DNA of 64,000 nucleotides from an uncultured delta proteobacterium (GTDB lineage: Bacteria > Desulfobacterota > Desulfobaccia > Desulfobaccales > 0-14-0-80-60-11): the NCBI GenBank assembly GCA_963701845.1, contig CAVPBF010000004.1, forward strand, positions 124,449-188,448, written 5' to 3'. The translations under genes and the position numbers were made by a program. The notes below the pieces were generated by a model. The model was not told the DNA's origin, made no database searches, and was given only the letters and a program-made list of their open reading frames with translations. Of this stretch, positions 8,959 through 63,093 are shown piece after piece (positions within the stretch are counted from its first letter, which is position 1; each line of letters starts with the position of its first letter).

Positions 8959-9294
8959 ATGGAAAATCGTCAGACGCATCGGCTTTACACCAACTTCGCC
9001 ATTGAATGCCGGGCCGTCCTCCAGGATCAAGGAAGTACGTTTGCCACCCCGGCCAGGATGAAAAATATCAGCCGGGGCGGGGCTTATCTGGAATGTGACG
9101 CCGAACCCCAATTATTCCCGGGAGAGATTGGCCACTTTACCTTCAGTGCACCGGCCGGCCAACAGGAGATGGGAGACGTTCGTCTGGCCGCCAAAGCCAG
9201 GGTTTGCCGCCTTGACCGCCTCCACGGAGACCGGGCCTCTTTCGGCCTGGCGGTGGAGTTTCTTTCCGGCCCCTTGATCTTTTACCAGGAATGA
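8959..9294 (+). CDS. PilZ domain protein (putative c-di-GMP binding)
   Basis: From M at 8959 (RBS AGGAAGAAAGG): N-terminal NRQTHR (RxxxR-like) and NISRGG ((D/N)xSxxG), with PilZ-typical size. The ORF-track start at 8893 is likely too long. Confidence 0.65.
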   Translation: MENRQTHRLYTNFAIECRAVLQDQGSTFATPARMKNISRGGAYLECDAEPQLFPGEIGHFTFSAPAGQQEMGDVRLAAKARVCRLDRLHGDRASFGLAVEFLSGPLIFYQE

Positions 9295-51929: not shown

Positions 51930-52019
51930 ACGCAACCACATCGGGCCGGATGGCTGCATGTTCTTGGCACAATTAGTATGTTATATAATATTTTAAACCT
52001 TCTTAGGAGGAGCCGCGGC

Positions 52020-53359
52020 ATGTGGTTGTTCTTCTGCTGTCTGTGGTTTATCCTGACGACGCCAGTCTGGGCTCAGCCCCAGCCGCCGGCGGCCAGAAAT
52101 CTCCTCACCCTTGAGGAGTCGGTCAATGCTGCCCTCCAAGATAACCGGCAGGTGAAGAACACCGGCCTGGAGGTTTCAAAATCGGAGCATATGCTGGCCG
52201 CGGTGCGCACTCGCCGTTGGCCGAATTTCGAAGTAATTGTGGGAGAGAACTGGCTCCTGACCCCCCAGCCGAATTTCAATGCCCTGGGCGGTCTTCCGGG
52301 CGTGCTGCCGATTCCGATTCCGATTCCCAGCGCATCGAATCTTGTCTCAAACCGGCAGCCTACTGCCTTAATGACGGGTTTAATGGCCCAGCCTTTGAGC
52401 CAGCAATACCGTATTGGCCTTAATATCTCGATGCACGACGTGATGCGGGATATTGCCCGGGAGCAACTGCGGGCCAAGCGGCAGGCGGTCGTGGACGACG
52501 TTAAGCGGCTCTATTATCGGGATTCTCCAGACCCAGAGTTCGCTGGAGAGTGTGGAGGAATCCATCCGATTTTTACGGGAAATGGAGCGTTTGCGCGGCC
52601 GGTATCTCAAAGAACAGGTGGTCCTGAAGTCCGAAAGCCTGGAGGTCAAGGCCAAGCTGGCTCAGGAGGAGCAGCACCAGATAGTGCTGCGTAACCAGCT
52701 GGCGACGCAAAAAGAGCAGCTGAACAACCTGATGGGCCGCAATATCCTGACGGAGTTTCGGGTCAACCCGATGCCCGAAGCCACCGCCCTGGAAAACGAC
52801 CTGGAAGCGGCCCGTACCCGGGCCTTGCAGCAGCGGGCGGAGGTCCGGGAAGCAAGGCTCAAAATCAGGCAGGCGGAGTACGACCGCTGGATTAAGCAGT
52901 CAGAATACATCCCTGATATCAGCTTCATCGCTTCTTATACCCGGACCGTAAATCTGTCGCCGGTGCCGGAAAACCTCGGATTTGCCGGGTTCTTGTTGAC
53001 CTGGGAGCCCTTTGATTGGGGGCGCAAGCGCCGGGAACTGGCGGCCAAGACCGAAACCGTGGCCCAGACGCAAAATACCAGCAGGGAAACCGAATCCAGG
53101 TGCTCATCGACGTGGACAGCAAATTCCGGAACCTCCAGGCCAGCCGGGGGCAGCTGAAGGCGAGCCGGGCAGCCCAGGAAACGGCGCGGGAAAAACTGAA
53201 GGAAACTATGGACGCTTTCAAGAATGGAACCGCCCTGATCAAGGACGTGCTCCAGGCCCAGCCCAGCCTGGCGCAGGCCGGCAGCGAATATCAAAAATCC
53301 CTGTCGGCTTCTGGACAGCCAAGGCCGAATTTGAAAAGTCCACGGGGGAAGAGAAATGA
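52020..53359 (+). pseudogene. TolC-like outer membrane efflux protein, about 3 frame disruptions
   Basis: AGGAGG RBS and signal peptide MWLFFCCLWFILTTPVWAQ. Three ORFs join: ..LTLEESVNAALQDNRQV.. / ..GILQTQSSLESVEESIRFLRE.. / ..IQVLIDVDSKFRNLQASRGQL.. / ..GFWTAKAEFEKSTGEEK. Confidence 0.75.
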
Positions 53360-54518
53360 GCTGCAAACATACATTTCGCAGGAAGAGCCGCGCTGACATG
53401 GTTTGCTTCTGGCCTTTCTTACGATCGGCTGCGGTCAGGCGGAAAAGCATGAACCGCCGCCCATCCCCGTTGGGGTCAGCCCCGCCGAGGCCTACCTGGC
53501 GGAACGGCGAGGTCCGCTATTCCGCCAATATACAACCTTATGCCAGGGTAGAGCTGGCTTTCAAGTCAGGGGGCTATCTCACCCATATCCTCCAGGTCCG
53601 GGGCGTGGACGGCAAGATGCGTAACGTTCAGGAAGGCGATTACGTGAAGCGGGGCGCCGTACTTGGCCCAGGTGCGGCAAACCGACTACGAAGCGAAGCT
53701 GGCGCAGGCCGGCGGGCCAGGATGCCGCGGCCCGGGCGGCGTTGGAGAAGGCCAGACTGGACCTCGAAGCGGGCGCGAAACCTGTATGCCGCCAATAGCC
53801 TGACTAAATCCGATTATGACAAAGCCATGGCCCAGTACGGAGAGGCCTTGGGGAGCGTGGCTCAACCGGGGGGCAGGTCAAAGAGGCCCGGATCGCCCTG
53901 GAGGACACCAAACTCAAGACCCCCACCGCCGCCCTGGTGCTCAAACGCAAGATCGAGGTTGGTGACCTGGTCAATGCCGGCACGGTGGGCTTCACCCTGG
54001 CCAACACCGAAGACGTCAAGGTGGTCTTCGGCATCTCCGACCTGATGCTGAAATATCTGAAATTGGGGGATCAACTGGCCGTGACCACTGAGGCGCTGCG
54101 GGGCAGGGTATTCCGGGGCCTGGTGACCGCCATCTCACCCTCAGCCGACCCCAAGAGCCGGGTATTCGACGTGGAAATCACCATCCCCAACCGCAATCAG
54201 GACTTGAAGGTTGGTATGATTGCCGCGGTGGCCGTGGCCACCGGCCAGGCGCCCACGGCTGTGACTGTGGTGCCGCTGACTGCGGTGGTGCGTTCCAAAA
54301 CCAACCCCCAGGGCTACGCTCTATTCGTGGTCGAGGGACCGCAAGGCCGCCGGATCGCCCGCCTGCGCGACAACATCGAATTGGGTGAGGTTTTCGGGAA
54401 CATGATCACCATTGCCAAAGGGGTCAAAGTCGGCGAACCCGTCATCGTCACCGGCGCCACTCTGGTGGCCGACGGGCAGCGGGTGAGGATTATTCCGCCC
54501 CCGGAGACGCAAATGTAG
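53356..54518 (+). pseudogene. RND efflux periplasmic adaptor (MFP), multiple frame disruptions
   Basis: ATGA overlap with the TolC-like gene. The lipobox LLAFLTIGCGQ is in an alternate frame. ..GEVRYSANIQPYARVELAFKSGGYL.. then ..LKTPTAALVLKRKIEVGDLV..VFDVEITIPN.., intact to 54518. Confidence 0.75.
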
Positions 54519-54578
54519 CAGTGTCTTACGCGCCATATTTGGTGCGGGGGACGCACAAAAAAGAATAGCGAACTTATC

Positions 54579-57500
54579 ATGGCACACAAGACTGACGACG
54601 AACGCATCCAAAAGACCCACAACACGGAGCGGTTCTCTGTAGAACACCCGCATATTACGTGGGTGCTACTGATTGCCACGCTGATCTGGGGGGTGTACGG
54701 GTACATGTCAATGCCGCAGCGCAAGGACCCGGACATCCCGGTCCGCGAGGCCCAGATCATCTGCCCCTGGCCGGGGATGGTCACCGAAAAGGTGGAGCAG
54801 TTAGTCACCCGCACCATCGAACTGAAGGTCGCTGAAAACACGCACATCAAGAAGATCGAGTCCACCAGCAGGGTGGGCCTCTCCGTGATTACGGTAGAAT
54901 TGGACGACAAGGTAGGTGACACCGGCGAAGCAGTTCGATGACATCAAATACCGCCTGGACTCCATCCACAACCTGCCGGAGGGGGCTGGACCCATACTGT
55001 TCTTCAAGGATTACGGGGATACTGCAGCCCTGATGTTGACCGTCGCCAGCCCGAAAGTGAGCGGGGTGGAGAGCGCGCTGCGCGCCCGGGATATTGCGAA
55101 GGCGATTCAGCAGGTGCGGCAACAGGCCCATAATGAACCTGCGGAGCGCCGAGTCACTCTGGTGGTCGGTTTCCCCATCTCCATCATCCCCCGAATAGTC
55201 CATCCGGCCGTTGACCAGTTTGCCGCCTATGTTCAGAAAGCAGGACTGGCCCGGGATGTGCGCCTCATCGAAGGGTCGGGGTTTGTGGGGATCGACTCCG
55301 CCACTACCGCGAGCGACGCGGAAATTATGGCGTGTTTGAACCGGTTCATCCGGGACCGCCTGCGGGCCTCGGAGCTGCACCCTGACGTCTGGGAGCCGGT
55401 GCTTGTTCACGATCCGGCCGAGACCGCCTCTGTCCTGGCTCAGCATCCTGGCGATAAGTACAGCTACCGGGAGATGGACCACTTCACCAAGCTGATCGAG
55501 CGCACCTTTTTGGGCGTGACAGTCTCCCTGGATAAGACTCCAATCGTCACCAAGGTGAGCCGCAGCGGCGTCCTTGACGAGGTGGTCTGGATGGAATACT
55601 CTCAGGAGCGCCTGGCTTCCTACGGCGGCAACGTCACCAAACTGCCGGATATTTTAAAGGCTCGCAACATCGCGGTGCCTGGCGGCGTCGTGGAGGTGGA
55701 AGGCAAGGAAGTGACGGTGCAGCCTTCCGGGGAGTTCAAGAGCGAAAAAGACATCGGCAATGTTATGATGGCTGCCACCGCGAATGGGGTGCCGGTCTAT
55801 CTCCGGGATGTTGCCGAAATATATCGGGGATACGAGAGTCCGCCGAGGTTCCTCAATTTCTTCGATCCTGGCGGGACGCAAAGGGCCAGTGGCAGCGCTC
55901 CCGAGCCATTACCGTGGCGGTGCAGATGCGCGCCGGGGAGAAGATCGGCGTGTTCGGCAAGGCGGTAGACGGGGCGCTCGCCGACTTGAAGAAGATCCTG
56001 CCGGAAGACCTGATCATGTTCCGGACCTCGGACCAGCCCCTGCAGGTCAAGGAAAACATCGACCTGTTTATGAATAGCCTCTATGAGGCCATCGCCCTGG
56101 TGGTCCTCGTCTCCTGGATCGGCTTCTGGAGCTGGCGCTTGGCGTTGCTGATGTCCATTTCCATCCCCCTGACCCTGGGCATGACCTTCGGGATGATGTT
56201 TCTCCTGGGGATCGACCTGCAGCAGGTGTCCATCGCCTCGCTGATCATCGCCCTGGGGCTCCTGGTGGATGTGCCGGTCGTGGCTGGCGACGCCATCAAA
56301 CGGGAACTGGGTGCGGGGCATAAACCGGTCGTGGCGGCCTGGCTGGGACCGACCAAGCTGGCCACCGCCATCGTTTTTGCCACCATTACCAATATCGTGG
56401 CTTATCTGCCTTTTCTCATGGTGGGCGGCGATACCGGGCGCTTCATTTATAGTCTGCCAATCGTCATGGCCTGCTCGCTAATCGCCTCCCGTATCGTGTC
56501 CATGACCTTTATCCCTTTGCTGGGCTATTATCTGCTTCGGCCGCCGAAGACCCTGGAGGCGCCCATCGCCGGAGCGGCGCCAGCATGGGTTCCTGGGGCT
56601 TTATTACAAGTTTGGGCGCCTGATGATCGCGCATCGGTGGCGTTTTATGGCGGCCTCCCTGGTTTTCCTGGCCGTGGGCGCTTTTGCCATGTCGAAGCTG
56701 CATACCGCCTTTTTTCCCAAGGACCTTTCCTATCTCTCCTATGTGGATGTCTGGCTGCCGGAGGACGCGCCGGTAGCAGCCACGGATGCCACAACGCGCC
56801 AGGTCGAAGCCGTCCTGCGAGACGCAGCGGTGGAATACGGGAAAGAGCATCCCGGACCGGACGGTAAACCCCGGAAGGTGCTGGAGTCGCCTTACTTCCT
56901 TTGTGGGCGGCGGCGGTCCCCGTTTCTGGTACTCGTTAGCTCCCGAACCGCGGCAGAACAACTATGCCCAGATCATCATCCAGGTGAAGGACAAACATGA
57001 CACTGGCCACTTGGTAGTCCCACTTGAGTCAGGCCTTGAATCCGCGCCATTCCCGGAGCCCGGTTGGACGTCAAGCAACTGGATACCGGCACGCCCATCA
57101 AATTTCCAGTCTCCATCCGGCTCAGCGGTCAAGACGGCCCTACCCTCAGGCGGCTGGCCGGGGAAATGGAAAAAATCTACCATTCCACACCTTTAGCAGA
57201 GCGTATCCGTAATAATTGGGGTTCGGAAAATATGGTGGCGCGGCTCCAGGTCGACCCGGACCGGGCCAATCTGGCGGGGGTTACCAACATGGATGTGGCC
57301 GCGGCCTCGGCCGTGGGCATGAACGGATACCAGGTCGGGACGTTCCGGGAAGGCGACAAGCAGATTCCCATCAAGGCGCGGCTGGTCATGGGTGAGCGGG
57401 CCCAGCTGGCCGACCTTTCCAACCTCTACGTTTATTCGTCGGAAAATTCCAACAAGGTGCCCCTGGGCCTCGTCTCCAGCCTGGACTACCATATGGAGAC

Positions 57501-58201
57501 GGAAAAGATTCAGCGCCGCCAGCAGTTCCGTACCATCGAGGTCTACTGCTTCCCGGCATCCGGCACCATGGCCTCCGAGGTGCTGAACGCCATCCGGCCC
57601 CAGTTGGCGGAATTTAAAAAGGCACTGCCGCCCGGCTATAAAATGGAGATCGGGGGCGAGCAGGAAGAGCAGGATAAAGGCTTCCACGACCTGACCATCG
57701 TCCTGCTGATTTCCATCATCTGCATCTATCTGGCCCTGGTGATCCAGTTCAGGAACTCCATCAAGCCATTTATCGTTTTTGCCACCATTCCATACGGCAT
57801 GGTGGGCGCCCTGATCGCTCTCCTGCTCGTGGGGCAGCCCTTCGGCTTCATGGCCTTCCTGGGGATCATCAGCCTGGTGGGGGTGATCATCAGCCACGTC
57901 ATCGTGCTCTTCGACTTTATCGAAGAGAGGCACGCCGAAGGCGAGCCCCTGGAGGAGGCATTGCTGGATGCTGGAATTATCCGGCTGCGGCCGGTGATGA
58001 TCACCGTGGGCGCCACTATCTTAGGCCTCATTCCCTCTGGCCGCCCATGGCGGACCCCTCTGGGAGCCATTATGCTTCGCCCAGATCGGCGGGCTGGCCG
58101 TCGCCACCTTTATCACCCTGCTCCTGGTGCCGGTGTTTTACAGCATCTTCGTGATGGATTTGAAGATCGTCACCTGGGAAACGCGAAAACCTACGGAATA
58201 G
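54579..58201 (+). pseudogene. RND efflux permease (AcrB/HAE1-like), at least 5 frame disruptions
   Basis: Five ORFs tile one about 1200-aa RND protein: N-terminus RFSVEHPHITWVLLIATLIWGVYGY; ..SLIIALGLLVDVPVV..; ..GFMAFLGIISLVGVIISHVIVLFDFIEE... The true C-terminus ..IGGLAVATFITLLLVPVFYSIFVMDLKIVTWETRKPTE ends at 58201 in an alternate frame. Confidence 0.85.
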
Positions 58202-58294
58202 GTCATGGTGCGGAAGAGCCAGCCATCGACTGGCAATACAGGCTATAGTTGTTAACTGCTATTGATCAGCACCTCAGGGCAAGCTAAAAGGCAT

Positions 58295-58548: not shown

Positions 58549-58812
58549 ATGGAGAGGACCGGTATGGATCTTGAGGCATTGCTGGAGATTCTGGCTTGGA
58601 AATATGGGAATGTAGGCTTTGAACGAGGACGCACCTATTCCATTGAGGTGACCACCGAAGAAGTGATAAAAATCTTGGGGGAAGCGCCTCCTTTGGGAAC
58701 TACGGTTGGCATCAAGGTCAAGCCCATTCAAGATGGCGACGGTCAGCACCTTGCCGTGGTCAGGCGCTTGCAGAGCCTGCCGGGAGGCAAAGATAAAGAC
58801 CATGAAGAATAA
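58549..58812 (+). CDS. hypothetical 87-aa protein, overlapping the start of the short recombinase
   Basis: Non-degenerate ORF with an 11-nt overlap onto the recombinase ATG at 58802, which suggests coupling. No family recognised. Confidence 0.45.
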   Translation: MERTGMDLEALLEILAWKYGNVGFERGRTYSIEVTTEEVIKILGEAPPLGTTVGIKVKPIQDGDGQHLAVVRRLQSLPGGKDKDHEE

Positions 58813-59385
58813 CTCTCTGGTTCCGGCCCTGCTCCCCCGGGCCCTGCAGATCGTGCCCTACCTCACCTCCGCAGAGGTGCAGGCCATGGCCCGGGCCTGC
58901 CGGGGGCGGCACCGGGAAAGAGACGGGCTGCTCATCCACACCCTGTTTCAGACGGGGCTAGGATCTCGGAAGCCTTGAGCCTGACCCCGAGGCGGATCGG
59001 CACCCATTATGGCCACGCAGTGCTCCATATTGTCGGGAAAGGACGGAAGCCCCGGATGGTGGCCTGCCCCGACACCCTGGCCCACCGCCTCAAGAGCCAT
59101 GCCTTTGACCAGAACCTGGGACTCGACGAGCAGATGTTTGGCATCACCCGCAAGCGGGCCTGGCAAATTCTGAAGAAAGCGGCGGAGCAGGCCGGCATCA
59201 CCAAAAAGGTGTATCCGCACCTCCTGCGCCATTCGGATGCCATTGAACGGCTGCGGCAGACCGGCAACCCCAAGGCCCTGCAGATCCACCTGGGCCACGC
59301 CAGCCCCCTGATGACCATGCGGTATTTGAGCACCCTCACCGCCGAAGACGCCCTGCGGATCCAGCAGGCGGTGGAGTTTGAGTAA
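58802..59385 (+). pseudogene. short (about 194-aa) tyrosine recombinase lacking an N-terminal core-binding domain (FimB/FimE-size class); one frame disruption near 58957
   Basis: MKNNSLVP...LFQTGL then (shift) RISEALSLTP (Arg), VGKGRKPR (Lys), HLLRHSDA (H-x-x-R), LGHASPLMTMRYL (His/Tyr). Confidence 0.85.
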
Positions 59386-59459
59386 ATCGAATGTAACGTG
59401 GAAAAGAATAATTAAGCTGGACGCCATTAGCATCAGTCGCAAAACCAGGGATTGAATAA

Positions 59460-60509
59460 ATGGAAGATGAAAGCGAAAATGTAGTGAATAAGAAGCTGAC
59501 GTATGATTATTTACCTTTCAGTGTTTCTTTCTCTGAGTACGATTTGGCTCTGTTCAGCAGCGTTGCCAAATCTCTTGTTCGGATTTGCTGGTTTACGGAT
59601 CGGTCGCTTTGGACACTTGGTATCACCATGCGCAGTAGGACTACTGAGGAAAAAGTTGCGGAGTTGGAGCTAATCGTCTATCAAGAAATATTAAGGCCAT
59701 TGGAAGATAAATTAAGGGCTGAGTATCTCAGGATAAACTTACTTTATGGGAAGAGCAATATAAAGCATACTGGTGTCAGTAGAAAACCTAGGAAAACTAT
59801 GGTGGGACTTCGCCATGTACACGCTCGACGTTTTTTTGATCTTTTGGTAGGTCTTGATAAGATGGCATGTCAGCTTGACGACCTTCGGTCTGTCGGGAAA
59901 ATCCCAGAAATCGAATATAAAAAGACATTATCGAATTCCCGGAATTCTATCAAAAAGGCCGCACTGAGGATTCAAAACCTTGTTGGTGAGTCTATAAAAC
60001 AAGCTGGGATTATACTATCCAGCGGCGTTGCTAAATCGCTTCGTCGGATTTGGTGGATGGGGGATAAATCGTTCTATAATTTGGATGTTGAGTTGCGCAA
60101 AAGGATTACTGAGGAACAAGCTGAGATTCTGGACCGAATTGTCTATGATGAATTTCTTAAACCGTTGGAGGAAAGGTTTCAAGTTGAATATCGCAGGGTT
60201 CAATTACTTTGTGAGCGGTATGGCATAAAGCCCTCCCGTAAAAAATCCGAGAATATCGCCGTTCACGTTCGCCAACCTGACGGCCATCGGTTCTATGATC
60301 TTTTGATCGGTCTTGATAATATGGTTTGTCAGCTTGACGATCTTCGGTTGGCCGGAAAAATATCCGGAAAAGAATATCAAGAGACAGTATCCAATTACCT
60401 GAAAAGTCTCAAAGAGGCCGGGCAGGGCATTCGTAGCCAGGTGAATGCGGCTATAAAACAAAGCTATGAGCTATTAATGAGGTCAATTTTTAATCAGTGC
60501 AAAAAATAG
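59460..60509 (+). CDS. 349-aa protein built from two tandem about 150-aa repeats; unknown family
   Basis: Repeat 1 (from about aa 33) and repeat 2 (from about aa 179) align along their full length, e.g. VAKSLVRICWFTDRS/VAKSLRRIWWMGDKS, IVYQEILRPLEDKLRAEY/IVYDEFLKPLEERFQVEY, RFFDLLVGLDKMACQLDDLRSVGKI/RFYDLLIGLDNMVCQLDDLRLAGKI. Confidence 0.6.
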   Translation: MEDESENVVNKKLTYDYLPFSVSFSEYDLALFSSVAKSLVRICWFTDRSLWTLGITMRSRTTEEKVAELELIVYQEILRPLEDKLRAEYLRINLLYGKSNIKHTGVSRKPRKTMVGLRHVHARRFFDLLVGLDKMACQLDDLRSVGKIPEIEYKKTLSNSRNSIKKAALRIQNLVGESIKQAGIILSSGVAKSLRRIWWMGDKSFYNLDVELRKRITEEQAEILDRIVYDEFLKPLEERFQVEYRRVQLLCERYGIKPSRKKSENIAVHVRQPDGHRFYDLLIGLDNMVCQLDDLRLAGKISGKEYQETVSNYLKSLKEAGQGIRSQVNAAIKQSYELLMRSIFNQCKK

Positions 60510-60528
60510 TTTCTCATTAAATTTTTTC

Positions 60529-60556
60529 TTGACAAATGGAATAGAGTGATTAATAT
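60529..60556 (+). promoter_or_regulatory. near-consensus sigma-70 promoter facing the ORF-free segment
   Basis: TTGACA (60529-60534), a 16-nt spacer, then TAATAT (60551-60556). Confidence 0.55.
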
Positions 60557-60559
60557 CCG

Positions 60560-60583
60560 AAAAAAAGGCGCGGTATTAGCGCC
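60560..60583 (-). terminator. minus-strand intrinsic terminator candidate
   Basis: The minus strand reads GGCGC-taatacc-GCGCC followed by T7 (the plus strand shows A7 at 60560-60566 and then the hairpin). Confidence 0.5.
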
Positions 60584-61263
60584 CGCTAGCCGGCGTTAAG
60601 GCGGGTGACCGGGTAAACCCCTTAGCCGAATAGGCAGCCCAAGATAACCAGACTGCTGACACGGTCCCGATTAGACCGTGTGGCCAGCGACCAAAAGCAA
60701 GCTTTCCAAAGCTATAAAAGGACGCGAGCCGGCGTGATGGCTAGCCATAGGGGTGGAGGCTTCATCCTAAAAAAAGAGCCGCTATAGAACGCTGACCGGC
60801 GTAAGGGGCGACGCCGAGGATTCAGCACGCTCCCGCCGCGGATGAGCGGAATTCCTGAGGGCGAGAGATCGTACTCAGACGTACCAAGCAACCGCAGGTT
60901 GCTCTAAAACAGCCAAAGACCCTATACCGAGAGATGCTATAGTATTGCGGTGAGGTTTTTGCGCGTCTTCGAACCCTCCTCAAAATTTACTTTCGCTGAA
61001 AGTAGGGGCGGGACCAACACTCCTCAGCCGGTCCAAGGCTTCGAAAAATCCTGCAAGATTTATGGTATCACGCGACTAAGGTCGTGCCCTGCCGCGACCT
61101 TCGGTCGGATTTCACATCGCAATTGAATACTTGGGATTCATACTGAGCACGAGTATGGCAGCAGAGGCAGGTGCCGCTGATAGCGGCCGATTCCTATAAG
61201 ATCAGCCATTTTGGGGAGGCTGATCTGGGGTCAGTTATGCTCACGTCGATTGCCTCGAACCGT

Positions 61264-61294
61264 AAAAAATGCGCGTCACCAAAAGCAAGCGCAT
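61264..61294 (-). terminator. minus-strand intrinsic terminator candidate
   Basis: The minus strand reads ATGCGC-ttgcttttggtgac-GCGCAT followed by a T-run (plus-strand A-run at 61264-61269). Confidence 0.45.
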
Positions 61295-61627
61295 CATTGC
61301 CACCCTGATGCCTAAGTACCTTCGAACAGGACGTAAAATACTGTTCAATAGATTTCATTTAACGCTTTTTAAAAATCAGGAAGCGTCAAATAAACAGACA
61401 AAAAATTATACAGCCATTGGCCACGACAGGGAGCCAGCAGGCCAAACGAAAACTGGGAGCGACCTTAAATCCCTAAAAACCACGAAGGAGAATCTGAAAA
61501 ATGAGGACTAACAACTTCGCGAAATCGGTGGGCTGGCACCTAAACCAGCGGGTGGGGGAAGCCGAACCACCTTAAACAAATCGGCGGAATGTTCAACAGG
61601 GTTGGAAGGTTTAGGGAGTGGTATGCC

Positions 61628-62572
61628 ATGAGAGGATCGCCAGTTTACCAAGTAACTCAAGTACTTAATTCTATTGCGGCTTTTGGGGAATCTAAGCATC
61701 AGGCCAAAGAGGCGGTCCGAGCAGCTGGTGCCAAGACCTGGCATGAGATGGGACAACACTTGGGAGTCTACAGCTTCAATACAATCAATTTATATCGCAG
61801 CATTTCGATAGAAGCATCACGATATGCGAAAGAAGCGTTTGTTATCAAAGATATTACAAAATTATCACCAGAAGTAGTGAGCGGGTTCCTTGAAGCAAAA
61901 ATCGCTGATGGCTTAAAATATGGCTCCTTCAAGACTTACTGTGCAGCACTCGAAAAATTGGCAGTGGCTCTAAAACTTTGGGCTCAGCAACACGAAACCG
62001 AATCAAACGATTACCACAATTATGACTGGTCGGCAGAGATTCAAGTGGCAAAAATAGAAGCAAAAGAAGTGCTTGATAGCATCGTTGAGACCAGGGCTTA
62101 TGAGGATCCGGAAGGATTAATAAAAGCAATATCTGATCCATCATATCATGTCGTTGCTTCAGCTCAATATAGCATTGGAGCCAGAATTTCTGAATTGGAC
62201 CATGTACGACAGGAACAGTTTTTAGGAGATGACCAATTTAAGATCATCAAAGGTAAAGGAGGCAAAGATAGGGTTGTCGAATTTCGGCATGGTAATGTTT
62301 ATGAGCAATATAGGCAAAAGGTAATTCATAACCTTAACCCACATTACGACAAATTTACGTTTAACCGGAACCAGTACCGGATGGCCCTAAAAGCAGCAGC
62401 CGACAAAACAGGGCAAGCGTACACAGGGAGTCATGGTTTACGGTGGAACTATGCTCAGGAACGTTTCCAAATGATTCAGCAAGGCGGTGGGACCTGGGAG
62501 GAAGCCTTAGTCCAAGTGGCGCATGAGATGGGCCACAGCAGGGGCGATATCACTCTACATTACCTCAGATAG
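61628..62572 (+). CDS. tyrosine recombinase/integrase (plasmid/ICE-type, divergent)
   Basis: GARISEL (Arg), IKGKGGKDR (Lys), SHGLRWNYA (H-x-x-R), HSRGDITLHYL (His/Tyr). Start chosen at MRGSPVYQ (61628) behind GGGAGTGG; the ORF-track start is 61589. Confidence 0.8.
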   Translation: MRGSPVYQVTQVLNSIAAFGESKHQAKEAVRAAGAKTWHEMGQHLGVYSFNTINLYRSISIEASRYAKEAFVIKDITKLSPEVVSGFLEAKIADGLKYGSFKTYCAALEKLAVALKLWAQQHETESNDYHNYDWSAEIQVAKIEAKEVLDSIVETRAYEDPEGLIKAISDPSYHVVASAQYSIGARISELDHVRQEQFLGDDQFKIIKGKGGKDRVVEFRHGNVYEQYRQKVIHNLNPHYDKFTFNRNQYRMALKAAADKTGQAYTGSHGLRWNYAQERFQMIQQGGGTWEEALVQVAHEMGHSRGDITLHYLR

Positions 62573-62583
62573 GAGAATCGTCA

Positions 62584-63093
62584 ATGTACCATTACGATCT
62601 CGAGCTGGTCAAAGCCATAACCAACACCACTGTGGAGGTCCGAGCGCAGCTGGCTCGATACTGGGGTCGCCAAGCGGAGCAGGTCCAGATAGAGGCCGTA
62701 AAGTTTGCCTTTGATATAGTCCGCCAAAGCGGCATTGAAGGCAAGGATAAGTTGCCAGAGGTATTTTATGCTTGTCTAATCAAAGCCTTGGGAAAAATGC
62801 ACCACTATGAAACGGCTAGAGCTGTAAAGAAAAAATCAGATTCCTCAGACTTTAGAGGGTTGAAGAAAATCAGCGAGATCAGGATCGAGAGATTAAAGGC
62901 CAGCAAGAAGGCCAAATCGAGTCCCAAGACCGCTAAGCTGGTCCTGCAATATGGCGGGTTGGTTACGCGGCTGCGGTCGGAGGGGTTCGGTTGGCGCCGA
63001 ATAGCCGAATATTTAAGGCGCTACAACCGACAGAAGGTCAGCCATCAGACACTGTATAACGCATTCAGGGGAACTGAGGATGAGAAAAAGTAA
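62584..63093 (+). CDS. 169-aa protein with a C-terminal resolvase/Hin-type HTH
   Basis: AGGAGAA RBS. C-terminal ..LRSEGFGWRRIAEYLRRYNRQKVSHQTLYNAF is a typical 3-helix HTH_7-like pattern. Lys-rich linker. Confidence 0.55.
   Translation: MYHYDLELVKAITNTTVEVRAQLARYWGRQAEQVQIEAVKFAFDIVRQSGIEGKDKLPEVFYACLIKALGKMHHYETARAVKKKSDSSDFRGLKKISEIRIERLKASKKAKSSPKTAKLVLQYGGLVTRLRSEGFGWRRIAEYLRRYNRQKVSHQTLYNAFRGTEDEKK

Follow-up and report, generated by a model that had tools for sequence, protein, structure and literature searches.

The stretch analysed here (the window) is 64,000 nucleotides (nt) of DNA from an uncultured delta proteobacterium. Its segment 60510-61627 is a non-coding gap between a gene for a protein of 349 amino acids (aa; 59460-60509) and the gene of an Xer-like tyrosine recombinase. 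We propose that this segment is an untranslated, cis-acting leader of about 1.07 kb that belongs to the recombinase operon and whose 3' pseudoknots would control expression of that operon; we put the probability of this reading at about 55%. We read the leader as a greatly expanded member of an RNA family that accompanies a recombinase clade in several phyla and is found neither in Rfam nor in the literature searched. The proposal builds on direct observations, namely conservation, promoter motifs, covariation of the pseudoknots and lack of coding potential. An initial annotation had described the segment as a candidate large structured non-coding RNA; covarying RNA structure absent from Rfam is indeed present, whereas the large ornate fold did not hold up. 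If our reading is right, a widespread, uncharacterised tyrosine recombinase clade, carried on genomic islands and plasmids in groups that include Desulfobacterota, Campylobacterota and Deferribacterota, has its own structured leader RNA. This would give a handle on recombinase control, on RNA-regulated or RNA-assisted tyrosine recombinases and on the role of tandem pseudoknots near integrase genes. Cultivable carriers include T. lovleyi SZ, Geomonas limicola, Sulfurospirillum cavolei, Arcobacter vandammei and Desulfurispirillum indicum S5.

Pseudoknots and tail upstream of the recombinase gene

Close relatives of the segment form a clade in which sub-clade A comprises the window and loci L116, L001, L088, L117 and L090, and sub-clade B comprises L005, L115, L092, L091, L086 and L003. 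At the 3' end of the segment two pseudoknots stand in tandem on the + strand. In pseudoknot 1 (61527-61549), P1 is formed by GGTG (61527-61530) and CACC (61537-61540) and P2 by GCTGG (61532-61536) and CCAGC (61545-61549). In pseudoknot 2 (61550-61585), P1 joins GGGTGG (61550-61555) to CCACCT (61567-61572), and P2 joins GCCGA (61561-61565) to TCGGC (61581-61585) across the A-rich linker TAAACAAA (61573-61580). A single-stranded tail of 12 nt, GGAATGTTCAAC (61586-61597, +), follows directly; it lies 30 nt before the start codon and is invariant in the clade. P1 of pseudoknot 1 is likewise invariant and its P2 covaries, with U-A in nine copies and C-G in three at one pair and C-G in nine and G-C in two at another; the pseudoknot scan detects this element in L088, L117, L005, L091 and L092. 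P2 of pseudoknot 2 is mostly GCTG/CAGC in the clade, with GCCG/CGGC in the window, CGCA/TGCG in L005 and GCTGAA/TTCAGC in L117. A covariance model of the tandem pair, R1, recovers all 13 clade copies at 68-88 bits and gives no other matches; since it was built on the clade and finds the clade only, it is unusable to define the wider family. In the R1 alignment 96% of the cells pair and four pairs carry compensatory changes, with a covariation score of 0.177 against a mean of 0.095 in shuffles (0/500 higher) and at most 0.058 in controls with slid pairing partners.

Outside the clade, the core common to the distant family is visible only as structure plus tail, and a simple motif search for clade sequence blocks in distant family members found none shared. 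The tail emerged when the 230 nt before the start codon were lined up in 33 further loci, where an A-run and a hairpin precede it, the hairpin stem being different from group to group. Its family consensus is about GGNNUKWMYUYAAS; it is recognisable in most family groups, 9-125 nt 5' of the start codon. A search written for this purpose looked immediately 5' of the tail for a P1/P1' stem with its loop, then an A-rich linker, then a P2' complementary to the loop. It found this layout in 49 of 54 loci drawn from all groups, with scores of 7.5-11.5 versus 0.4-4.7 in shuffles. These loci include Desulfobacterota, Campylobacterota and the Trichlorobacter plasmid, and their stems are group-specific: P1 takes 20 or more sequences over the 49 loci and P2 takes 10 or more. 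Under a stricter null, in which the hairpin alone was shuffled and linker, P2' and tail were left intact, the per-locus p ranged from 0.005 to 0.23 and the Fisher combined p was ~2e-19 (30 non-redundant loci). The P2 pairs found across groups include, among others, GCGU/ACGC, AGCU/AGCU, AAGC/GCUU, UGCA/UGCA, UGCU/AGCA, GCUG/CAGC, GCCG/CGGC and CGCA/UGCG, a variation that we read as genuine covariation of a tertiary pairing.

Further upstream, the pseudoknot scan identified a third module, module A (60750-60780, +), with P1 GGTGG (60752-60756)/TCATC (60762-60766), loop AGGCT, A-rich linker CTAAAAAAAG (60767-60776) and P2 GGCT (60758-60761)/AGCC (60777-60780). Its counterpart in L117 (652-684) reads GGGTGG AGGCTGCG CCATCC TTAACAAAAC AGCC, and in Campylobacterota leaders the module takes the form AGGTGG AGCTC..UNCG hairpin..CCATCT TAACCAAAA GAGCC. 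The strict module A pattern matches only + strand sites upstream of these recombinase genes. Over the whole leader the pseudoknot-module scan gave four matches versus 0.8 in shuffles; coding controls reach 0-3 per kb, and therefore only the conserved modules count. No copies of the tail or of the pseudoknot sequences beyond chance occur elsewhere in the 64-kb window. The three H-type pseudoknot modules and the tail are the conserved structures of the segment, and none of them was among the hairpins listed in the initial annotation.

The functional strand can be assigned to +, and RNA is favoured over duplex DNA, because of promoter direction, UNCG tetraloops, G.U pairs in the + orientation, an A-rich sense strand and P2, a pairing that would be meaningless in duplex DNA. 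The AT skew of the + strand is +0.2 to +0.35, as in the sense strand of the neighbouring genes. Hairpins followed by T-runs, resembling terminators of the minus strand, occur at 60566-60584, directly after the + promoter, and at 61410-61424. A minus-strand RNA ending at these sites was rejected, since they are unconserved in relatives and promoters, UNCG loops, G.U pairs and base skew favour the + strand.

The gene-free gap and its relatives

The initial annotation had noted about 760 bp with no open reading frame (ORF) of 60 aa or more, and indeed none exists in any frame of 60510-61268. The biggest ORFs of the segment have 80 aa (61269-61511, +) and 83 aa (61508-61759, -); the former is unconserved and, as read from the 12-sequence alignment, is shortened to 18 codons in the closest relative, L001. 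Each of the six frames is broken by all three stop codons, which excludes a recoded ORF. A recoded or frameshifted gene was therefore rejected. The G+C content is 0.50-0.58, versus 0.40-0.45 in the flanking element genes (10-15 points lower); host DNA further left has about 0.58-0.62.

Upstream, the sequence TTGACA-16-TAATAT (60529-60556, +) forms a sigma-70-type promoter, scoring 10/12. It was correctly singled out before as near-consensus, being the best such match in 59300-62700, and it is kept in L116, L001 and L088. Transcription would start near 60562-60565, and no terminator-like site was found on the + strand downstream of this promoter. Two repeat families, both confined to the segment, lie within it. 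The first consists of three copies of CGCNAGCCGGCGTNANGGC at 60584, 60723 and 60790 (+; within 60584-60808), each containing the CCGGCGT motif whose recurrence had been pointed out; the three copies are real and the repeat occurs nowhere else in the 64-kb window. The second consists of three units of an A-run and a GC hairpin, at 60555, 60764 and 61258 (+). We regard these copies as probable signs of module duplication inside the leader. A host-wide repeat of the repetitive extragenic palindrome or bacterial interspersed mosaic element type (REP/BIME) was rejected, the motif being confined to the segment.

No known RNA family could be assigned, as the initial annotation had anticipated. A search of the segment with Rfam 15 gave no match at the gathering score, at E <= 1 or at E <= 10, and Rfam models gave none on the related loci. 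ARAGORN reported only a distant tRNA-Ser, and the segment had no blastn match in the plasmid and phage collections. The suggestion of an RNA-primed or plasmid origin found no evidence in these analyses. No reverse transcriptase, IscB or TnpB family was met among the flanking ORFs scanned, which agrees with the earlier statement, with the proviso that no scan was aimed at such genes.

The recombinases of the close relatives are 63-98% identical to the window protein and are encoded on metagenomic contigs that share one gene order: variable cargo, a gene-free gap of 1.1-1.6 kb, the recombinase gene, a gene for a ~166-aa protein, in places small ORFs, a canonical integrase of 369-395 aa, and host genes. 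Twelve distinct islands keep the gap upstream of the recombinase, with a + promoter at its start, and the nucleotide conservation of the gap is comparable to that of the genes. The initial annotation had asked whether homologues always co-occur with the two flanking genes: the segment is a conserved partner of the recombinase gene, and the 349-aa gene is found in sub-clade A only. In L092 the gap lies directly 3' of a host EamA fragment, which assigns the gap to the element's conserved core. The 13 clade copies all have one orientation relative to the recombinase gene; an invertible promoter switch was rejected on this ground and because flanking inverted repeats are missing. Sub-clades A and B share only the last ~100-400 nt of the gap, the remainder being sub-clade-specific, mosaic and rich in insertions and deletions (indels). 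Near-consensus promoters mark the start of conservation in both sub-clades and on plasmid pGLOV01, and an extended -10 promoter does so in Campylobacterota; its counterpart in sub-clade B, TTGACA-17-TAGAAT/TAGGAT, stands at the beginning of the conserved block.

A genome scan with the protein alignment found 80 loci in Desulfobacterota, Campylobacterota, Deferribacterota, Elusimicrobia and others, to which a metagenome scan added only two; a pattern scan of viral contigs gave 21 matches, none homologous by nhmmer. About 30 Campylobacterota loci (~30% protein identity) have their own conserved upstream region of 270-530 nt. From 5' to 3' it consists of the extended -10 promoter, a domain GGUGGAGCUC...hairpin...CCAUCUUAACCAAAAGAGCC, an optional insertion of ~170 nt and a second structured part ending in AUGCAGAUUGACUUAAC. 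The hairpin of the 5' domain is capped by UACG or UUCG, and its stems covary (CACU/AGUG, CUC/GAG, AAC/GUU, GCU/AGC). On plasmid pGLOV01 of T. lovleyi SZ (L120, 4700-5000), the gene GLOV_RS18275, whose product is 41% identical, is preceded by a TTGACA promoter and a leader of ~250 nt with pseudoknot and tail, AGAGC-ATACCGCTTTT-GCTC-AAAAATAA-AGCG-TTGGGTTCAAG. A second tyrosine recombinase gene and a Tn3 transposase gene adjoin GLOV_RS18275.

Several further features were seen in the relatives. In sub-clade B, one or two palindromes, AATTTAAC-N14-GTTAAATT, which look like operators, lie just upstream of the leader promoter (L005 4344-4470; L091, L115 and L092 at about -1500), and nearly all clade members have a half-site, ATTTAAC, ~255 nt 5' of the start codon (61357-61363 in the window). 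Sub-clade B leaders also hold three to four tandem GC hairpins of the type GGCTGCCC-TTAA-AGGGTGGCC with A-run spacers (in L115 about 1270 to 1130 nt 5' of the start codon); their copy number depends on the locus, and several G.U pairs form in the + orientation. On the plasmids pTRACA66 (L118, HM560028.1, 1714-2384; 3.8 kb) and pSRC8 (L119, NC_017071.1, 2379-3257; 4.7 kb), a distant recombinase homologue lies behind a gene-free gap of 670-880 nt, with a divergent ORF of ~165-170 aa on the other side of the gap, and the pTRACA66 gap contains three tandem palindromic units GTTCGTA-N6-TACGAAC. The island cargo includes genes of defence type, namely E1/E2/JAB/Multi_ubiq genes in L001 (1-830) and AbiEi in L005 (1-1785), and the canonical integrase gene of L005 abuts a tRNA gene (9202-9285).

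Fold, layout of the proposed leader and neighbouring genes

The segment is hairpin-dense, as the initial annotation had emphasised, and the six hairpins it named are all where it placed them. Twelve perfect stems of at least 6 bp were counted, versus 2.7 +/- 1.6 in dinucleotide shuffles (0/500 reach 12), which is an excess of ~4-fold over shuffled sequence; coding DNA of the same window itself has 0-6 such stems per kb, and the excess over natural sequence is therefore only ~2-3 fold. Minimum free energy (MFE) z-scores are -1 to -2.5 across 60560-61460 and about 0 in the flanking genes. The listed hairpins mostly fail as conserved RNA structure: that at 60988-61004 is broken in 19 of 28 comparisons and that at 61199-61226 in 4 of 9, the hairpin at 61173-61187 cannot be aligned among relatives, and those at 60659-60681 and 60887-60903 are kept mostly through sequence identity.

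One global fold was assessed by following pairs predicted for the window or for L115 into the relatives, both globally and under a 60-nt span limit and on both strands, with pairing partners slid by 1-3 nt as control. The fraction of changed pairs that still pair was 0.27-0.37, versus 0.30-0.39 in the slid controls. For the shared 3' part, aligned in 12 sequences, RNAalifold returned -10.8 kcal/mol and one covarying hairpin, and the scan of the structure conservation index was limited because sub-clade A aligned poorly. A single large ornate fold was accordingly rejected, given that there is no covariation for it, that RNAalifold is weak and that pairs behave as in slid controls. This shows that the impression of a large ornate RNA stems mostly from clade-specific expansion round a small conserved core.

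Within the proposed leader (60557-61627, +), which has neither ORF nor + terminator and is collinear, homologous and indel-rich in L001, L116, L090, L088 and L117 (indel lengths are not multiples of three), several parts can be told apart. The 5' domain with GC hairpins (60557-60706, +) is common to L116, L001 and L088 and 79-95% identical in the four loci. It contains the hairpin GGCGC/GCGCC (60567-60583, +), replaced by AGCTG/CAGCT in L088, and the hairpin ACACGGTC/GACCGTGT (60659-60681, +), in which the sixth pair of the stem 60661-60679 changes from C-G in the window to U.G in L001 and to A-U in L088. The variable middle, or expansion, segment (60790-61250, +) is hairpin-rich with mosaic homology, partly common to L090 and L117 only, and its hairpins are mostly unconserved; window positions 60710-60985 are present in L117 and L090 and absent from L001 and L116. 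Its position is that of the optional ~170-nt insertion of the Campylobacterota leaders (alignment columns 355-528). The conserved 3' domain (61251-61526, +) is common to all 12 clade members by alignment and nhmmer/blastn, with invariant short blocks that include CGTAAAAAA (61261-61269) and TTTCATTTAAC (61353-61363); a clade-A pseudoknot candidate read from the sequence at 61417-61456 (+) is unconserved in L001 and L090. After the tandem pseudoknots and tail comes the Shine-Dalgarno (SD) sequence GGGAG (61614-61618, +), which a small hairpin pairs with bases just 5' of the ATG (61628-61630). RNAalifold pairs of this hairpin covary in part: 506/519 is G-C in ten sequences and A-U in two, and 507/518 is G-C in seven and G-U in five.

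Of the annotated ORF of 327 aa at 61589-62572, homologues cover only residues 14-327. Because they begin at residue 14 and the GGGAG sequence stands at 61614-61618, the true start is the ATG at 61628, which leaves a recombinase of 314 aa (61628-62572, +) behind the leader and agrees with the segment end at 61627 given before. Residues R186, K210, H269-R272 (HxxR), H303 and Y312 are invariant in the alignment of 32 homologues. Among models it matches XerA, XerC and IntI, and among PDB chains IntI4 and XerC-like ones, in each case only remotely; in Pfam it reaches PF02899 below threshold only and misses the gathering score of PF00589, which is recorded for some relatives. Its AlphaFold model (predicted local distance difference test score, pLDDT, 88.9) has a two-domain Cre/IntI/XerA fold with no added domain, and Foldseek matches it to Cre, IntI, XerA and lambda Int. 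Since the catalytic residues are kept, the matches are remote and the fold is of this type, the protein is probably a divergent but active simple tyrosine recombinase. Foldseek also matches the recombinase-like phage repressors SroF (phi3T) and YopR (SPbeta); a purely regulatory role seems less likely because the catalytic residues are intact. No phage homologue of the recombinase protein was found.

The gene 3' of the recombinase (62584-63093, +) encodes a 169-aa protein with a C-terminal helix-turn-helix (HTH)-like region, recognised through a weak HTH_32 match only; it always has this position in the close clade and is unconserved in distant groups. On the other side, the 349-aa protein (59460-60509, +) is AcaB-like by a weak PF08900 match (E 8.6e-6) and has duplicated domains; its gene contains an internal tandem duplication, a 459-nt repeat (59809-60002 vs 60268-60461). 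Single- or double-domain versions have the same position in L001, L116, L088 and L090 (single-domain, 165-175 aa, in L088 and L090), and the gene stands outside the conserved core because it is limited to sub-clade A islands. At the left edge of the low-G+C island, where G+C drops at ~58150, lies a tyrosine integrase gene remnant (58549-59385, G+C 0.64), whose C-terminal 136 aa match PF00589 at 2e-11. An outer-membrane factor, a membrane-fusion protein and a resistance-nodulation-division (RND) efflux pump are encoded at 51978-58248, just left of the island; their genes are broken up into many overlapping ORFs, which points to frameshifts, either in pseudogenes or as assembly indels.

Competing readings and known systems

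In the mechanism we propose, transcription would run from the 60529-60556 promoter, with no terminator in its way, into the recombinase gene as one RNA, and the operon would comprise the Xer/Cre-like recombinase and the 169-aa HTH protein on an integrative genomic island. In order, a family leader would comprise a promoter, module A, a stretch whose length varies widely, one or two pseudoknots with tail, and a Shine-Dalgarno sequence ahead of the recombinase. Expansion in this clade may have affected the variable stretch (~60790-61250) and the 5' end (60557-60750), partly via unit duplication. The 3' pseudoknot-plus-tail would be operator-like and might control translation, stability or read-through of the recombinase message, and the invariant tail may be recognised by a protein, either the recombinase itself or a host factor. 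The expanded part might tune or protect the long untranslated RNA with no ornate fold.

Several points weigh against this reading. The folding z-scores do not tell the strands apart, being equally negative on the two. Over ~700 nt of the leader no conserved structure emerged: predicted pairs are kept no better than in slid controls, and RNAalifold energies are weak. L001, L116 and L090 keep P1 and the tail with neither the A-rich linker nor a convincing P2. In the family members L012, L015 and L029 the upstream gap is almost absent; the recombinase protein can therefore occur without the leader. Promoter and read-through are predictions made from sequence, simple occlusion of the ribosome-binding site is argued against by the varying distance from tail to start codon (9-125 nt), and a folded single-stranded DNA form could still stand as an alternative.

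It is possible, though unlikely, that the leader RNA is a functional partner of the recombinase, i.e. a stable non-coding RNA, or the source from which one is processed, that binds the recombinase and serves as scaffold, specificity factor or guide in recombination; the bridge RNAs, which come from the 5' region of IS110 recombinase genes, would be a loose parallel. Across phyla and on plasmids the motif keeps strictly to this recombinase clade and to the strand of its gene, the invariant tail resembles a recognition element for a conserved partner, and the leader is far bigger than ordinary regulatory leaders. Moreover, the islands have a separate canonical integrase by a tRNA gene, so the Xer-like enzyme serves another task. 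Against a partner role, the conserved loops and tail are constant, giving no sign of programmable segments that would pair with target or donor, and the window holds no other copy of tail or pseudoknot. The recombinase has an ordinary two-domain fold, some family members lack the leader, and no terminator or processing signal was seen that would release a discrete RNA. The literature search found no RNA-dependent, RNA-guided or pseudoknot-controlled tyrosine recombinases. More doubtful still is the idea that the pseudoknot-plus-tail RNA is an obligate subunit or cofactor of the recombinase clade, in which case the recombinase would bind the invariant tail and pseudoknots of the leader that precedes its gene, and the RNA, kb-sized in this clade, would help to choose or assemble recombination sites; if true, this would be the first RNA-dependent tyrosine recombinase system.

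That the features act as DNA, in the form of a recombination or resolution site, a transfer origin or a folded single-stranded substrate, seems to us no more probable than an RNA partner. Models for such a site are the integron attC, the CTX-phage attP and the gene-adjacent site of XerS/difSL. Single-recombinase Xer systems have their site beside the gene, and the closest solved relative by sequence and fold is an integron integrase on folded single-stranded attC. The small plasmids, with the gene behind a 670-880-nt gap that holds tandem palindromes, and the sub-clade B palindromes, whose half-site recurs in the 3' domain, also speak for DNA, and single-stranded DNA was considered too by the authors who described the STAXI motif, discussed below (PMC2864571). 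Against DNA, the pairing of the P2 loop with a downstream strand across A-rich linkers covaries in many groups and would be senseless in duplex DNA. In addition, the stems have only 4-7 bp, UNCG tetraloops stabilise RNA and not DNA, promoters always face into the region, and the uniform orientation of the clade copies (13/13) gives no sign of inversion. A dif-like core site around the tail was rejected on reading the sequence, there being no second inverted arm and hence no recognisable core site of 28-30 bp.

Less probable again is a processive antitermination signal, in which the boxA-like tail would recruit Nus factors across the Rho-sensitive leader and operon. An untranslated RNA of 1 kb needs protection from Rho, the tail follows a structured element, as in boxB-boxA, and the Campylobacterota tail ...GACUUAACAAA resembles GCUCUUUAACAA, which we take to be the rrn boxA consensus. 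This likeness is weak outside Campylobacterota (e.g. GGAAUGUUCAAC, GGGUUUACUCAAG), however, and the universal 5' GG of the tail is no boxA feature; the element also lies at the 3' end of the leader and not at the start, where protection is needed. Finally, decayed coding sequence or a functionless palindrome-rich spacer would fit the variable, mosaic middle without covariation and the fact that natural coding DNA of the window also exceeds shuffles in hairpins, but it is very improbable and already largely refuted by the covarying pseudoknots across phyla, the conserved blocks, promoter and length class in 12 islands, the G+C 10-15 points above the flanks, and the lack of any frame with reduced stops or of ORF fragments with a protein-family match.

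In the integron, attC-type imperfect palindromes bound the cassettes and the integrase gene is divergently transcribed, whereas the recombinase gene here is co-oriented with the region and its similarity to IntI is remote only. As in GOLLD, ROOL, HEARO and OLE, a non-coding RNA sequence in the kilobase range, G+C-enriched and with many stems, lies on a mobile element; in contrast to them, it has no Rfam match and no covariation for a global fold, and most of its length is poorly conserved among close relatives. The IS110 bridge RNA likewise is a structured non-coding RNA directly upstream, on the same strand, of the gene of a site-specific recombinase of a mobile element. The enzyme there is a DEDD (RuvC-like)/Tnp-domain recombinase, whereas it is a tyrosine recombinase here (R-K-HxxR-H-Y, Cre-like), with a separate integrase on the element. 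No variable guide loops were found among the conserved loops and the tail, which are constant, and there is no sequence or Rfam relationship between the two.

The pseudoknots themselves resemble those of the preQ1-I and SAM-II riboswitches and the autoregulatory ones of phage T4 gene 32 and E. coli rpsO in their P1 of 4-7 bp, a loop giving P2, an A-rich linker and the 3' strand of P2, and in their position tens of bases before the ribosome-binding site. In T4 gene 32, a nucleic-acid-binding protein represses its own mRNA via a 5' pseudoknot. Unlike in preQ1-I and SAM-II, loop and P2 vary freely here, so that no ligand pocket is conserved; no Rfam riboswitch matches, and the downstream genes are recombinases and not metabolic genes.

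The STAXI motif (Ssbp, Topoisomerase, Antirestriction, XerDC Integrase) is a pseudoknot unit in two to three tandem repeats whose function is unexplained (Weinberg et al. 2010, PMC2864571), and its UUCG tetraloops were taken to argue for RNA over single-stranded DNA (PMC2864571). The segment is not a STAXI member, because the Rfam model has no match in the window (E <= 10) or in the related loci. Here the structure goes with one recombinase clade, occupies the sense strand in every case and lies shortly before the start codon, and a conserved tail follows the pseudoknots inside a leader of 0.2-1.5 kb. UACG and UUCG loops occur in the Campylobacterota module A and in none of the three pseudoknot modules of the window. 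The likeness lies in the tandem pseudoknots (61527-61585, plus module A at 60750-60780) and in their location on mobile DNA beside genes that manipulate DNA, including an XerDC-type integrase in STAXI and an Xer-like tyrosine recombinase here. The association with recombinases that the initial annotation had called unusual is instead the rule for this recombinase clade, and of the described analogues STAXI is the closest.

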